In this document: one piece after another, positions 7,628 to 64,000 of the stretch
Layout: the number at the start of each line of letters is the position of its first letter
Numbering within the stretch: position 1 is the first letter of the stretch
Origin: a virus
Strand: one strand, 5' to 3'
IMG/VR virus record: IMGVR_UViG_3300032675_001827
Span: 1 to 64,000 of that record
DNA: 64,000 bases
Notes under the pieces: model-generated
Told to the model about the DNA's origin: nothing
The model's database searches: none
Seen by the model: only the letters and a program-made list of their open reading frames with translations
Position numbers and translations under genes: made by a program

Positions 7628-8653
7628 ATGACCCTTGTAAAACGCATACATATAGAACTGTCAACTAGGTGCCAAGCTAGTTGTCCAATGTGTCCAAGAA
7701 ACCATTCTGGAGGTATCACACGCAGCTTTGTAGGGCCAACTGATATAAGTTTTGAACAATTCAAAAAATGGTTTACTGACAATTGGTTGTCTCAGTTAGA
7801 ATATTTTTTGGCATGCGGGAATTATGGCGACCCTGTAATGAACAAAGACAGTTTGCCAATTCTCGAGTATCTGAGATCGCATAACCAAACCTGCAAAATA
7901 AGTTTTCATACCAATGGAAGTGCTCGTGATAAAGACTGGTGGCAGCGATTAGCAGAGATAATTGGTAAACAAGGTCAAGCTGTATTGGCTATTGACGGTT
8001 TCCATGACACACATTCTCTGTATCGAATTGGAACTAACTGGGATCATGTAATGAATACAGCTGATATTCTTATTGCATGCGGAATCGATGTGTGGGCGGA
8101 AACTTTGATTTTTGATCATAATAAACACGAAATAGATCAACTCAAAGAATTTCTATACAATCGTGGCTTTAGACATATAAATGTCAAATACACACAGAGA
8201 TTTGCCGGAGGATCAGAATTTCCAGTGGCCAACGGATCAATTTTGAAATCTGCAGAAAACAAACCTTGGCAGTCTGTAATCACAGGCGATACCTATGAAA
8301 ACTGGTTGACCAATACTGAAATTGATCCAAAATGTCAGCAAAATGGTGGTGAAATTTATGTAGATGTAGCTGGACGATTATGGCCTTGTTGTTGGGTAGC
8401 AGATTCTTACACGCGGCTCACAGATCCTGATCATGGAGATCATAATTGGTCTAAATGGAGTAGAATTCAAGGACAGGAAATCAAAAAGATCGTTGAGCAG
8501 TCAATACCATTATACTTACGCGATAATAATATTGAAATTACGTTAGAAAACTATGCAAAGCAATTGGATATTTGGAAAGATCTGTGGTTATCTGATCGCA
8601 AACCATGTGAATGCGTAATACATTGTAAGAAAAAATATATAAACAGGGTCTAG
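7628..8653 (+). CDS. Radical SAM protein with SPASM/twitch-like C-terminus
   Basis: CQASCPMC (CxxxCxxC), GNYGDP, HTNGS, WPCC, C-terminal CxxxC. Confidence 0.9.
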   Translation: MTLVKRIHIELSTRCQASCPMCPRNHSGGITRSFVGPTDISFEQFKKWFTDNWLSQLEYFLACGNYGDPVMNKDSLPILEYLRSHNQTCKISFHTNGSARDKDWWQRLAEIIGKQGQAVLAIDGFHDTHSLYRIGTNWDHVMNTADILIACGIDVWAETLIFDHNKHEIDQLKEFLYNRGFRHINVKYTQRFAGGSEFPVANGSILKSAENKPWQSVITGDTYENWLTNTEIDPKCQQNGGEIYVDVAGRLWPCCWVADSYTRLTDPDHGDHNWSKWSRIQGQEIKKIVEQSIPLYLRDNNIEITLENYAKQLDIWKDLWLSDRKPCECVIHCKKKYINRV

Positions 8654-9317: not shown

Positions 9318-12368
<3,051 letters not shown>

Positions 12369-12370
12369 TA

Positions 12371-12401
12371 AAAAAGGTGTAGCTAAAAACTACACCTTTT
12401 T
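12371..12401. terminator. Bidirectional intrinsic terminator
   Basis: aaaaaggtgtag-ctaaaaa-ctacaccttttt between convergent dnaK and release factor genes. Confidence 0.85.
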
Positions 12402-13092
12402 ACCATAATAAGTCAATCATTCCTTTTGACAATTGTCTTGTGTTAATAGTTTTATTATTTCTATGATCACAAATTTCATCATGCTGTAAACGATAGGTGC
12501 GTATTTTATCACCTCTCTGGCCAGACCCAACTTGTGCCTTTTTTTCTGAGCTTATTTTTTCATGCTGCTGTATACCAAAGTATTGTCGCAGTTTAGCAGT
12601 TAGATCGTTTTTAGCTTGGGTATAACTAGTTTCTCTACTGCGAGTCTGAGCCGTAACTGTGATTCCAGTTGGCGTATGGGTAAGCCTTATACTATTCTGA
12701 TGTTTATTTCTGTGCTGGCCTCCTTTACCTGTACCGCTGAACCACGATAAACTTAGATCTTTTTCATCTAATACAAACTCATTGGTCAAGTTTGGATCTA
12801 TAACACTAACGGTAACAGTACTGGTGTGCACTCTACCTTTTTTCTCAGTAGGTGGCACACGTTGCCATCGATGACCTCCGGCTTCTGCTTCAAGTTTTTC
12901 TAAATTTTGTCCTGAAAATTCAAGTGAGATGGCAAAATTGCCGTGCCCTTTTGTGCTGGGTCTCACATCTGCCCAGCGGCACTTTCAACCAACTCTGGTT
13001 GCTAGATTAAAATAGATGTCTGCTAAATCTTTAACTAACAGCTGACTATCAGCACCGCCTTCGGCAGCGTGTATTTCTATTATTCTACGCAT
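12400..13092 (-). CDS. Short RF1-type peptide chain release factor with in-frame UGA at codon 36 (230 aa if read through)
   Basis: AAGGAG RBS; IEIHAAEGG...RVG*KC; EAGGHRWQRVPPTEKKGRVHTS; GKGGQHRNK; RGDKIRTY. Confidence 0.88.
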
Positions 13093-13558: not shown

Positions 13559-13598
13559 TAAAGTTGGCTTATCGGAGTTAATGCTGTATAATTTGCAT

Positions 13599-13688
13599 AT
13601 GGATAAAGTAGAAATGGATAAAGTAGAAATGGATAAAGTAGAAATGGATAAAGTAGAAATGGATAAAGTAGAAATGGATAAAGTAGAA
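13599..13688 (+). repeat. Perfect 15-bp tandem repeat x6
   Basis: (atggataaagtagaa)6. Confidence 0.97.
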
Positions 13689-14087
13689 ATCATATTCAAA
13701 AAACAAATAGCTAATTCTCCGTGTATGGCAATGATGTTACAAGCTCATGCTGAACTAATTGAAAAAAGCTGGGCAATGAATATACTTCCGTTTGGGCATA
13801 AAAGCAGTTGCATTTATGCTCAAATTGAAAATGACATTGCAGGTGCTATAGTTTTTATTTTTGACCCTGATATTGAAGTTGTACACACTCAGTTATCCTA
13901 TGTGAAACCACAGTATCGTGGCCGGCGCATATACCAGTCAATGCACAAATACCTGCATGATTATGCACGTAAAGTCGGAGCGCATAGAATAACCAGTACA
14001 GTTCATATAGACAATCAGCCACTTTTGCAAGCAAGTACACGAAGCGGCATGACTACTCGCTGGGTTGCACAGATTTTAGAATTGTAA
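13599..14087 (+). CDS. GNAT family acetyltransferase with N-terminal (MDKVE)6
   Basis: LSYVKPQYRGRRIY acetyl-CoA motif; VHIDN. Confidence 0.8.
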   Translation: MDKVEMDKVEMDKVEMDKVEMDKVEMDKVEIIFKKQIANSPCMAMMLQAHAELIEKSWAMNILPFGHKSSCIYAQIENDIAGAIVFIFDPDIEVVHTQLSYVKPQYRGRRIYQSMHKYLHDYARKVGAHRITSTVHIDNQPLLQASTRSGMTTRWVAQILEL

Positions 14088-14088
14088 T

Positions 14089-15063
14089 ATGGTTACACTT
14101 TCATATACAAATAGTTTTAAATTTGGCTATAACGGTGAGTGGTTCAACTCACGAGTATCAAAAAATGACCAATGGATGACACAGTATGATCCAATTGAAA
14201 GACCTGTAGTTGATTTTGGAACAGAGTGTATAAACACAGCAAAATTAATACGTGAAACAGCTACTGGTCCGATAGATGTTTTGTTTTCAGGTGGACAAGA
14301 CAGCGAGGTGTGCTTAAACGCATTCTTGCTAGCAGGGATATCTGTTAATGTATTAATCATGCGTTTTAAAGATGGGTTTAACGCATTTGATACAGCTTAT
14401 GCAACCAAATATTGTCAAGCACACAATATTGAACCAATTTATGTAGACCTGGATATTTGTAAATTTTTAGAAACAGATGCCTGGGATTATGCTGCACTTA
14501 CGCAGTGCACCTCTCCGCCGTTGTTACCTCATTTGTGGCTAATAGATCAAAGCGATCACTATGTGGTAATTGGGTCAGGTGATGTTTTTTTGTATAAAAA
14601 TATTTTAATTGCTCAAGGCACAGTACCAGATACAGAATTTTACACAATTAACCAAAAGATTACACCTAAAACAACGTTTGATAACAAATGGTATTATAGG
14701 GAACACGAGTCAATTGCAGCATTGCATCGTCTGTTTATGTTACGTAATAGAGACGGATGCCCAGGATTTTTCCAGTACAATCCTGAGCTAGTTCTAAGTT
14801 GGCTAAATGAACCAGAGGTCAACAGAGACTTAAGTGGATCAAATGACAGAGTCAGTACACTGTATACCAAATACGAAATTTATCAAAGGATTTGGCAGAT
14901 TCAAAATAGACCTAAATTTGATGGATTTGAAATAGTTCGGCATGCTGTCAGCATTCCAAAAATGCGGCAGAGTTTGGAAACACAGAATGCAGATTTCATG
15001 CAAACCTACAAAGTACAAGTTGACGATTTGCGCAAACAATTACAAGGCGATATAAATGGATAA
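14089..15063 (+). CDS. PP-loop (adenine nucleotide alpha-hydrolase-like) protein
   Basis: VLFSGGQDSE (SGGxDS). Confidence 0.65.
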   Translation: MVTLSYTNSFKFGYNGEWFNSRVSKNDQWMTQYDPIERPVVDFGTECINTAKLIRETATGPIDVLFSGGQDSEVCLNAFLLAGISVNVLIMRFKDGFNAFDTAYATKYCQAHNIEPIYVDLDICKFLETDAWDYAALTQCTSPPLLPHLWLIDQSDHYVVIGSGDVFLYKNILIAQGTVPDTEFYTINQKITPKTTFDNKWYYREHESIAALHRLFMLRNRDGCPGFFQYNPELVLSWLNEPEVNRDLSGSNDRVSTLYTKYEIYQRIWQIQNRPKFDGFEIVRHAVSIPKMRQSLETQNADFMQTYKVQVDDLRKQLQGDING

Positions 15064-15349
15064 GAAGGCGATTTTTGTATGCCAGTGTCATTCACATGAA
15101 CATATGGTATCAGTTGATTTGTACGATTGGGATAATGGCGATGTAGATTTTTGTTTGTCCGTAACAGCAGAAACACATCTATCATGGCTAAAACGATTGA
15201 AAATCGCTGTGAAATACCTATTTGGCTTACCAGGACTATCCTGGCACGATGTAATGCTAAAGGACGAAGATGTGCTAACATTGTCACAGTTGATTGCAGA
15301 TTATAATGCGTTAAAAAACAGCCAACCGGAAAATAACCGACATGTCTGA
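15056..15349 (+). CDS. Hypothetical protein
   Basis: CQCHSHEH; WLKRLKIAVKYLFG. Confidence 0.65.
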   Translation: MDKKAIFVCQCHSHEHMVSVDLYDWDNGDVDFCLSVTAETHLSWLKRLKIAVKYLFGLPGLSWHDVMLKDEDVLTLSQLIADYNALKNSQPENNRHV

Positions 15350-15746
15350 AATTATTTCATACAAAGGTGACCCTTGGTACGCCGACGAAAGTGACGACTG
15401 TGTGCGCCTATTTAGAGGCAACCTCCAAATACTCAAAGCGCCAAAGAACGGAACCCCTTACGAGGAATATTAGCCCGAGCCAAAAATGCTAAAGTGGATG
15501 CTTGATGCATTGAATGAAAAAGAACGTAGTGAAAGATTGGCACCTGTATTGAATGGAACTGATACCTGCTGGTGCTATCATTGCATGGAAAAGAGAACGG
15601 ATCCAAACACGGGATGGCCGATGACCTTATCAACATTTATCACCTGTCCCAACTGCGGAAACAAGCGTTGTCCACGAGCTACAGACCACAATTTAGCCTG
15701 CACCGGCAGCAATGAACCAGGACAAAAAGGCAGTAGATATGAGTGA
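15342..15746 (+). CDS. Zn-finger hypothetical protein with in-frame TAG at 15471-15473
   Basis: MSEIISYKGDPW...EEY*PEPKMLKW continues in frame into CWCYHC...CPNCGNKRCPRATDH. Confidence 0.6.
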
Positions 15747-16206
15747 GCGTCCTGATATTGACACCTGGGCACTGGATCTAGCAGACCTAGTCGCAACACG
15801 TAGCCGTGACCCAAACACAAAGGTTGGCGCAGTAATCCTTAGGCCTGATAACACTATTGCAGCGGCTGGCTATAATGGCTTTCCAAGAGGTACTTACGAC
15901 GACGATGAGATTTATGCAGATAAAACACGTAAACTGCTGAGAGTGGTCCATGCTGAGTTGAATGCAATTTTAACCAGCCGAGAGCCGTTACATGGTTACA
16001 CACTTTACGTTTCGCCATTACATCCTTGTAGCCAATGCGCTGCGGCTATTATACAAAGCGGAATTAAAACGGTGATTGCGCGAACTGATCCTTCTAGAGA
16101 AAGTACAACATGGCGCGAAAGTTTTGCCGAAGCCGGCCGGATGTTTAAAGAAGCAAATATCAAAGTAAAACTATTGACAGACTCGCATATAGAAATTAGT
16201 TTATGA
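15739..16206 (+). CDS. dCMP deaminase
   Basis: SRDPNTKVGAV, GYNGFPRG, HAELNA, PCSQC. Confidence 0.93.
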   Translation: MSERPDIDTWALDLADLVATRSRDPNTKVGAVILRPDNTIAAAGYNGFPRGTYDDDEIYADKTRKLLRVVHAELNAILTSREPLHGYTLYVSPLHPCSQCAAAIIQSGIKTVIARTDPSRESTTWRESFAEAGRMFKEANIKVKLLTDSHIEISL

Positions 16207-19588: not shown

Positions 19589-19670
19589 GCAACTATGGAT
19601 TAGCTAATTTTTCGTTGTGCATTACCTGATACTAGTGTACAATGTTTTTAATATTTTTTTTGGGGATAAC

Positions 19671-20495
19671 ATGACTGATAATACAGCGTTAGGTGATCGT
19701 ATGAAGGAATACGAATCCTATGAAACAAATAGAAAGTTCATGCCTGGACTACCAATCTACGCACGGGTAGACGGTCGCGGATTTTCTAGATTCACAAGAG
19801 GCATGGAACGGCCCTATGACATTCGTATGAGTAATGCAATGATCGAAACAACCAAAGTGTTGGTTGAACAAACGCATGCTACTATCGGCTATACTCAAAG
19901 CGATGAAATTTCATTGGTATGGATCCCTAATGAACACGGGCACAATTGGTTTGACGGTAAAGTAATGAAAATGACCAGTGTGCTGGCAGGTCTAGCAACT
20001 GCTGCGTTTGGCCAGGCAATTTTGCTGGAATTCAGCAACATGCACGGTCTTCCTTTGTTGCAAAAAATGCCTCACTTTGATACCCGTGTGATCAGCATGC
20101 CTAGTGAGATTGAAGCTGCTAACATGTTGCTGTGGCGAAATCAGGATTGCGCAAAAAATAGCATAACAATGGCAGCAAGCTCTCTTTACAGTCATAAAGA
20201 ACTTCAAGGTAAGAATTCAGCTAACAAGCACGACATGCTATTCGACAAGGGCATAAATTGGTCAACCGACTATCCGTATTTCTTTAAGCGTGGGACATTT
20301 GTTAGACGACGCTCTGTTGAAAGATTGTTGGCCGAACACGAGTTGAATTCTATACCAGAAGAATATCGACCTGCATCAAATGAGAGAGTTGTTAGATCAA
20401 CGGTTGACCCGTACGATCTACCTCCACTTTCTAAAATAGAAAATTTAGTCCCTGTGTTGTTCAAGGATGCTGACCCTGTGTTACGATCTGGGTAA
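19671..20495 (+). CDS. tRNA(His) guanylyltransferase Thg1-like protein
   Basis: LGDRMKEYE, RVDGRGFSRFT, YTQSDEISL, FDTR, WRNQDCAKNS, KRGT. Confidence 0.93.
   Translation: MTDNTALGDRMKEYESYETNRKFMPGLPIYARVDGRGFSRFTRGMERPYDIRMSNAMIETTKVLVEQTHATIGYTQSDEISLVWIPNEHGHNWFDGKVMKMTSVLAGLATAAFGQAILLEFSNMHGLPLLQKMPHFDTRVISMPSEIEAANMLLWRNQDCAKNSITMAASSLYSHKELQGKNSANKHDMLFDKGINWSTDYPYFFKRGTFVRRRSVERLLAEHELNSIPEEYRPASNERVVRSTVDPYDLPPLSKIENLVPVLFKDADPVLRSG

Positions 20496-60924: not shown

Positions 60925-64000
<3,076 letters not shown>

Follow-up and report, generated by a model that had tools for sequence, protein, structure and literature searches.

The stretch of DNA analysed here, i.e. positions 1 to 64,000 of IMG/VR virus record IMGVR_UViG_3300032675_001827 (hereafter the window, 64,000 nucleotides in full), encodes on its minus strand a class-I release factor (RF) of the RF1 type, the reading frame of which is interrupted at codon 36 by a TGA. 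A comparison of this gene with its relatives in viruses, metagenomes and bacteria leads us to the view that the interruption is probably a programmed UGA read-through gate on an RF1-type factor without domain 1, by which the synthesis of the factor is coupled to the UGA-decoding state of the cell. If true, the phage would possess a circuit that reads the termination or UGA-decoding state of its host and answers with a terminator of the other specificity.

The gene runs from ATG 13092 to TAA 12400 and contains TGA 12987-12985 as its one in-frame stop. Thirty-five sense codons (MRRII...ATRVG, 13092-12988) precede this TGA and 194 more codons in the same frame (codons 37-230, 12984-12403) lead from it to the terminal TAA (12402-12400); the PPT motif (12855-12847) and the GGQ motif (12723-12715) both lie in frame after the interruption. 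The context of the stop is GGT-TGA-AAG, and the other four tryptophan (Trp) codons of the gene are TGG. An initial annotation, made from the sequence of the window, had read this locus as a phage release factor that is made only when UGA is read through, either upon a shortage of RF2 or by means of a suppressor transfer RNA (tRNA). Its statements on the frame, the motifs and the coordinates (ATG, TGA, PPT, GGQ, TAA and a stem after the stop) are all correct, and its interpretation as a whole is partly supported, as will become clear below.

The same annotation had named TGG at the interrupted codon, in reads or in homologues, as the observation that would speak against it, and what was found instead is TGA throughout. 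Two independent assemblies from other studies, X18 (2022, depth 25) and X20 (2023), show no difference at 12985-12987, X18 departing from the window at 13080 and 13205 only. A megablast of the locus against a collection of phage GenBank records yielded no match. Two scans of viral collections, from which the best 80 of 253-268 matches per query were taken, yielded 160 loci with 104 distinct genes (46-69% protein identity), and all of these have TGA at the aligned codon; a metagenome scan (best 80 of at least 467 matches) added 80 loci with 64 further distinct genes, again with TGA in all. In total, therefore, TGA is found at codon 36, as the sole in-frame stop, in 240 of 240 loci and 168 distinct genes (46-70% protein identity). 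The other Trp codons of the 104 distinct viral homologues (1-4 per gene) are TGG. Synonymous sites are saturated for most pairs of homologues (proportion of synonymous differences, pS, ~0.76), yet TGG never takes the place of TGA.

The frame is under selection on both sides of the stop. The ratio of nonsynonymous to synonymous substitution rates (dN/dS) is 0.10 before the TGA and 0.14 after it, which indicates the purifying selection that the initial annotation had proposed to look for, and the upstream 35 residues are the best-conserved part of the protein (0.81 versus 0.72). Of the 104 viral homologues 101 have an ATG as the first aligned codon, 92 have a Shine-Dalgarno (SD)-like motif of at least 4 nucleotides upstream of the aligned start, and 96 are terminated by TAA. 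No conserved restart codon follows the stop in these 104 genes, the first in-frame ATG, GTG or TTG being located anywhere from 5 to 119 codons downstream. None of the 104 genes has a T directly after the TGA, the base there being A, G or C, whereas 30% of the genuine TGA terminators in these genomes are followed by T; a U directly after the stop codon (+4U) is reported to lower read-through (PMC5289835). The invariance of the TGA in 168 distinct genes, together with the purifying selection and the independent assemblies, excludes a pseudogene or an assembly error, and on this comparative sequence evidence the interruption is a site-specific, ancient and selected recoding gate and not damage.

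The nature of the interruption has been obscured by the way in which the genes were called. 'Full-length' proteins of 222 amino acids in the databases bear a W at the gate position, whereas their closest relatives at the DNA level read TGA, and on long contigs members of the same clusters are called as two open reading frames (ORFs) of 35 and 166-190 amino acids; the whole-length calls must thus be calls in the style of genetic code 4 on short contigs. For the clusters of P0063 and P0065 the upstream 35-residue ORF has been annotated on its own as 'protein subunit release factor A'.

The 230-residue product of read-through matches the families PCRF (PF03462, E 1.6e-23) and RF-1 (PF00472, E 6.3e-20). 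It covers positions 107-322 of the 347 positions of the RF1 profile (prfA; NF001859 / TIGR00019) at 188 bits, i.e. below the equivalog cut-off of 400, and because the coverage starts only at position 107 the product is identified as RF1-type without domain 1, just as the initial annotation had put it. In most homologues an in-frame stop is found a few codons upstream of the ATG. The RF1 type, which had been deduced from the PxT motif, is borne out as well: the decoding elements of RF1 (P-x-T, the upstream Gln and the H-T of GR[IV]HTS) are intact, RWQRVPPTEKKGRVHTST aligning with RVQRVPVTESGGRIHTST of the RF1 of Thermotoga, and so is the GGQ motif at residues 124-126. By homology to RF1 the product would be expected to terminate at UAA and UAG. 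The TGA itself aligns with a conserved Trp of solved RF1s, a position that is Trp in all RF1s aligned, in agreement with what had been claimed for it. An AlphaFold model of the product (predicted local distance difference test, pLDDT, 86.6) has a template-modelling (TM) score of 0.84 to ribosome-bound RF1, and places residues 2-11 in the first strand and residues 14-34 in the long helix alpha-5 of the codon-recognition domain; the codons after the gate supply the remainder of domain 2, the GGQ domain 3 and domain 4. Conservation, dN/dS and model agree that the 35 residues before the gate belong integrally to the fold and are subject to selection. Since the stop thus lies inside a single fold at a native Trp position, only the product of read-through can be functional. 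Truncated RF1 without domain 1 is active both in vitro and in vivo (PMC1586002).

Other genes of these phages do not share the interruption, and the initial claim that no genome-wide recoding is involved holds for the window and for its relatives. The window belongs to a 74.6 kb IMG/VR viral contig, the GC content of which is 39%; its low CheckV completeness (~18%) at this length and its GC content suggest that it is a fragment of a giant phage, from freshwater, and the same stretch occurs in ~20 freshwater or lake metagenome runs from 2016-2023. The coding density of this contig is highest under the standard code (0.925) and TGA ends 27 of its 84 crude gene calls. The only other same-frame ORF pairs on the contig that are split by a TGA are the boundary of a split DnaK gene and a low-complexity, off-frame reading; the latter (61752-62435, minus strand) consists of a long PVGPV-type frame without Pfam match and was discarded, since it is probably a collagen-like gene with triplet repeats that has been read in the wrong frame. 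Five complete relatives (320-524 kb) each encode exactly one gene with an RF domain, and 34-48% of their genes end in TGA. Best-frame homology alignments of 30,000-64,000 columns for each of these five genomes, from which antisense and off-frame ORFs were excluded in counting stops, contained no more than 0-5 stray in-frame stops each, and a TGA-Trp pattern was absent. The slight rise in coding density that a greedy 'TGA sense' calculation gave for G002 and G004 was judged to be an artefact of long spurious ORFs, the homology alignments of both being free of TGA-Trp. The phages are not code 4 phages: in-frame TGAs are not widespread in them and TGA is common as a terminator.

With respect to TAG the relatives present a separate observation. 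G001, G002, G003 and G005 each carry a transfer-messenger RNA (tmRNA) gene and 1-2 tRNAs with the CUA anticodon, i.e. of the amber-suppressor type (e.g. G003:124199-124272 and 126682-126759), and the conserved genes of these relatives have no in-frame TAG. In G001, long same-frame ORF pairs with a single TAG in between are found in excess (ratio 0.46 versus 0.17-0.18 for TAA and TGA), which may reflect partial recoding of TAG.

As to what could decode the gate, UGA is the stop codon that is misread by tRNA-Trp, so that its read-through restores the native residue, and this would explain why UGA is used exclusively at a Trp codon; Trp is probably the residue inserted at codon 36. A search for a UCA-anticodon tRNA had been proposed, and while this fragment contains none, such tRNAs are present in two of the relatives. 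According to ARAGORN, the five complete relatives encode a tmRNA and 34-59 tRNAs each, often near the RF gene, and four of the five lack a UCA anticodon. The fifth, G004, has a 77-nucleotide type-I tRNA(UCA) at 190515-190591, with the G discriminator that is also found in phage tRNA-Trp genes, and is devoid of a tRNA-Trp(CCA). A pattern scan of nine further large relatives revealed two tandem tRNA(UCA) genes in G008 (L419:1333-1409 and 1469-1545), which adjoin the tmRNA gene. The tRNA(UCA) genes of G004 and G008 are of type I and Trp-like, not of the selenocysteine (Sec) type, and in both of these complete genomes TGA is the stop of ~40% of the genes. No UCA tRNA was found in the flanks of the 104 viral loci, and a tRNA-Trp is the nearest upstream tRNA of the RF gene in only 3 of these. 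In relatives without a UCA tRNA decoding would depend on near-cognate tRNA-Trp. Seven out of nine phage tRNA-Trp(CCA) genes have U11-A24, i.e. a D-arm like that of the Hirsh suppressor; there is no baseline for this count and the tRNA is not found in all phages, and we do not use it as evidence.

The gene family extends into bacteria, where a second recoding device is found at the same codon. Bacterial and archaeal genomes were scanned with the family alignment as query (a single-protein query had given no match), and 12 bacterial copies with an in-frame TGA at the Trp codon were recovered, mostly from Alphaproteobacteria and some on large chromosomal contigs. Another 53 bacterial copies, mainly from Myxococcota, have a +1 shift of frame at this codon. 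All 53 have CTT and then a stop at the junction (TGA in 28, TAG in 24 and TAA in 1), usually with a C after the stop and an SD-like CGGAGG three bases upstream. Judged by its sequence, this junction is a prfB-type +1 frameshift cassette (SD, 3 nucleotides, CTT, stop, C). A maximum-likelihood tree separates a read-through clade, which comprises all viral and 12 of 13 bacterial read-through copies, from a frameshift clade with 100/100 support. Within the frameshift clade TGA and TAG have been interchanged at least 7-8 times, including between near-identical genes, and the PPT/PPN motif is the same in its TGA and TAG members. No conserved partner gene was found at the bacterial loci. Two copies depart from this pattern: L228, from a Hahella metagenome-assembled genome (MAG), is placed inside the read-through clade and shifts its frame by +1 at a CTT-TAG-C that lies ~five codons beyond the usual site, and L238, from a Wolfebacteria MAG, forms a long branch inside the frameshift clade and has its in-frame TGA elsewhere (~residue 51). 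The fact that two recoding devices have been kept at one codon, under purifying selection and across saturating divergence, implies that the interruption functions as a gate.

In the window the stop is followed by a stem-loop, to which the initial annotation had drawn attention and which is indeed real and locally conserved, albeit in its own subclade and not across the family. A GCTGGG/CCCAGC stem (12977-12972/12960-12955) begins at the 8th base after the TGA and is part of a larger fold (GUGCC-GCUGGG...CCCAGC...GGGCAC, 12982-12943) with a free energy of -17.6 kcal/mol over 50 nucleotides (z = -3.1 versus other 50-nucleotide windows of the same gene). Relative to the subclade with 70% protein identity to the window, synonymous change is suppressed in codons 37-57 (12984-12922): 15 of the 16 codons for conserved residues are identical to the letter there, as compared to 67 of 139 elsewhere (Fisher p = 4e-4). 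A second small hairpin lies within this part (12944-12929, listed on the plus strand). The conservation is in line with an RNA element at the hairpin that is specific to this clade; alternatively, it marks a locally younger, recombined segment. Family-wide, the tendency to fold after the stop is weak (mean z -0.75) and RNAalifold gives no consensus structure. In the subclade of the window the stem-loop, which starts 3-8 nucleotides after the stop, would probably tune the read-through.

The course of events that we propose is as follows. Most ribosomes that start at ATG 13092 would terminate at the UGA of codon 36 via host RF2 and so release a peptide of 35 residues, while a fraction would read the UGA as Trp and produce the factor of 230 residues. 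The decoder would be near-cognate tRNA-Trp(CCA) or, in those lineages that have one, the Trp-like phage tRNA(UCA). The yield would be set by the competition between termination and decoding at the UGA, and the phage would thereby make the supply of its UAA/UAG-type terminator dependent on how UGA is decoded in the cell that it infects. Both devices, read-through and frameshift, depend on slow termination, and the simplest reading is that output goes up with inefficient termination at the gate codon or with boosted decoding of UGA, that is, with changes in host RF2 activity or in an opal-decoding tRNA. By analogy with prfB, read-through may be expected to respond to the levels of RF2 or of the tRNA. 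Whether all members of the short RF1-type family, in giant phages as well as in several bacterial phyla, are made only via recoding at one fixed codon, which would make this family the first of the RF1 lineage with a recoding gate and the first natural example of a release factor controlled by stop-codon read-through, is a broader proposition for which we consider the chances evenly balanced.

Several observations weigh against this proposal, and they mostly concern the sensing and the decoding. A factor of the RF1 type cannot relieve stalling at UGA, which makes the benefit of sensing RF2 hard to see. The free exchange of TGA and TAG next to an unchanged PPT/PPN is the main argument against a strictly RF2-specific sensor family-wide. 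The 74.6 kb contig carries no tRNA gene at all, and hence no UCA anticodon, although it represents only ~18% of the genome. A UCA tRNA is present in 2 of the 14 relatives with a complete or near-complete genome and absent from the other 12; in the absence of such a tRNA basal read-through may amount to only about a percent. The supposition that the signal is RF2 shortage or a suppressor tRNA thus survives in part: the tRNAs of G004 and G008 speak for the latter, while RF2 sensing rests on the analogy with prfB and is weakened as a family-wide rule by the codon swaps. The register of the stem in the window is not preserved across the family above the level of shuffled sequences (59.2% versus 58.4% paired) and has no covariation support. 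A family-wide peak of synonymous-site conservation after the TGA (observed/expected 1.57) was rejected as confounded, for an equal peak occurs in a variable region (residues 169-183). Finally, this stretch was not found in any RNA run.

A product that acts on both codons would account most readily for the swaps between TGA and TAG, and these swaps speak for self-regulation, in which the short factor, with its specificity broadened to UGA, would itself recognise the gate codon and exert negative feedback as in prfB instead of reporting on host RF2. The swaps occur in otherwise identical cassettes and the motif does not change with them; a Pro in the middle of PPT is, for an RF1, not usual. Nevertheless, all residues that confer UAA/UAG specificity on RF1 (Q, P-x-T, H and T) are unchanged, and a need to restore Trp accounts just as well for the exclusive use of UGA in the read-through clade, so that we regard self-regulation as unlikely. 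A fixed attenuator, i.e. a UGA that does not sense anything but keeps a factor that would do harm in excess at a constant low level, would accord with the reduced fitness of Bacillus subtilis upon RF overexpression (PMC12421855), with the rarity of opal-decoding tRNAs among the relatives and with the lack of a family-wide downstream structure. A weak promoter or ribosome-binding site would suffice for a low yield, yet a strong SD is conserved; moreover, two different devices have been retained at one codon, and both are intrinsically sensitive to the rate of termination. We consider such an attenuator distinctly unlikely.

A timed switch, in which a tRNA(UCA) encoded elsewhere in the phage genome would delay synthesis of the factor until that tRNA is expressed, draws on the Trp-like tRNAs of G004 (which has no tRNA-Trp(CCA)) and G008 (which has two copies), on the ~80% of the genome of this phage that is missing, and on the proposal that RF1 and a suppressor tRNA form a 'code-change module' in Jade phages (10.1101/2021.08.26.457843). 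It is very unlikely in our estimation, since the contig, 12 of the 14 relatives and the flanks of the 104 loci are all without a UCA tRNA, and since the other genes have no in-frame TGA while TGA terminates about a third to half of the genes, all of which would be subject to read-through. There remain the readings in which no single read-through protein is made, and these appear to us most improbable. Public gene callers do annotate the 35-residue and the 166-190-residue ORFs separately, and GTG 12966 could open an ORF of 188 amino acids, but a downstream start at a constant position is not kept among the homologues, and its product would, according to the model, miss the first strand of the decoding domain together with helix alpha-5. 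A hairpin directly after the UGA is also what a bacterial selenocysteine insertion sequence (SECIS) would look like; the homologous residue, however, is Trp and not Cys, the structure is not conserved, and the tRNA(UCA) genes of the relatives are ordinary type-I tRNAs, so that the gene does not qualify as that of a bacterial selenoprotein. Damage to the gene or to the assembly is contradicted by the invariance of the TGA, by the selection on both of its sides and by the independent assemblies. The programmed read-through gate remains our preferred reading.

To our knowledge, recoding at an internal stop as a means to regulate a release factor has for forty years been known for RF2 only, the autoregulatory programmed +1 frameshift of prfB reportedly going back to Craigen and Caskey in 1986. 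The gene of the window resembles prfB in that it encodes a class-I RF, has one conserved early in-frame stop and yields its full-length product only when termination at that stop fails, and the sister clade even has the same cassette (SD, 3 nucleotides, CUU, stop, C). The window itself, on the other hand, has GTT-GGT-TGA-AAG in one frame, with no CUU, internal SD or shift, and the escape must be by read-through and not by slippage. In addition, the factor is of the RF1 type, for which UGA is by homology the codon of the other factor, so that the gate would effect cross-regulation instead of autoregulation, and it is positioned at codon 36 inside domain 2 of a protein without domain 1, whereas that of prfB is at codon ~26 in domain 1. 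A 2025 survey of prfB frameshifting in more than 12,000 genomes reports no such device in prfA/RF1-type genes and no TAG in the prfB motifs (PMC12421855). Searches of the literature did not turn up any account of short RF1-type genes with an in-frame UGA or a frameshift.

Read-through as such has precedents. The A1 protein of phage Qbeta arises from natural read-through of UGA by tRNA-Trp. As in that type of system, the UGA of the window is leaky, i.e. without a following U, would be read as Trp at low frequency and opens onto an extension in the same frame; known read-through, however, extends a protein that is already functional, whereas here the stop interrupts a fold. The Jade phages likewise have an RF1-type factor that is possibly paired with an opal-decoding tRNA (10.1101/2021.08.26.457843), but there the RF1 gene reportedly has the standard code amid many in-frame TGAs, whereas here no gene other than that of the RF has an in-frame TGA, which is used as a stop in the genome. 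The initial annotation had further likened the product to PrfH. Both are indeed class-I RF paralogues that lack domain 1 and have the GGQ motif intact (RF-H, TIGR03072; PMC1586002), and a gene for an RtcB-like partner is found immediately upstream of PrfH in the same orientation (PMC1586002). No RtcB partner is present on the contig of the window, nor was one seen at the bacterial loci. The product scores 52.3 bits against a cut-off of 166.65 for TIGR03072, matches the solved PrfH structure 9mor with E 5e-8 as compared to 2e-39 for RF1, and has RF1-type decoding residues where those of PrfH are altered. It thus fails three of four tests, and of the likeness only the missing domain 1 is left. 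We know of no recoding site that has been reported for PrfH genes.

If the proposal holds, a paralogue of RF1 displays the logic of prfB by another escape route, i.e. read-through, while among its relatives the classical frameshift occurs at the very same codon. This natural pair of solutions offers a comparative and experimental handle on the way in which a ribosome chooses among termination, read-through and slippage, and it points to giant phages that, already equipped with a tmRNA, dozens of tRNAs and suppressor-type tRNAs, deliberately interfere with termination in their hosts. In practical terms, the family is systematically mis-annotated across public databases, either as split ORFs (35 and ~190 amino acids) or by the silent use of code 4 on short contigs.

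The remaining features of the locus form a compact unit between 13149 and 12371 on the minus strand, consisting of a sigma-70-like promoter, the SD, the split frame and a terminator-like hairpin. The promoter-like site (13149-13121, TTGACA-17 nt-AATAGT) matches the sigma-70 consensus at 10 of 12 positions, including a perfect TTGACA, and is a consensus match only. It overlaps the TAAATA at 13128-13123 that had initially been taken for a late motif. This assignment is not supported: the T4 late consensus TATAAATA has 9 matches in the window as against 6.9 expected, i.e. no enrichment, and a T4-type late promoter was rejected on this ground. The SD (AAGGAG, 13105-13100) lies 7 nucleotides upstream of the ATG (13092-13090). 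At the other end, a hairpin of 14 pairs that is followed by a run of T (12401-12371) resembles an intrinsic terminator and is situated between the convergent RF and DnaK genes. The neighbour upstream of the RF gene has the divergent orientation and is without Pfam match. The DnaK/Hsp70 gene (9382-12368, plus strand) is itself split into two ORFs, which match profile positions 1-223 and 224-598 and have ~1.1 kb in between. The further neighbourhood (7628-8653, 13581-16206 and 19617-20495, plus strand) is dense in genes for the modification of tRNAs and nucleotides, namely those for a radical SAM (S-adenosylmethionine) protein, a GNAT acetyltransferase, a QueC-like protein, a dCMP deaminase and a Thg1 tRNA-His guanylyltransferase.

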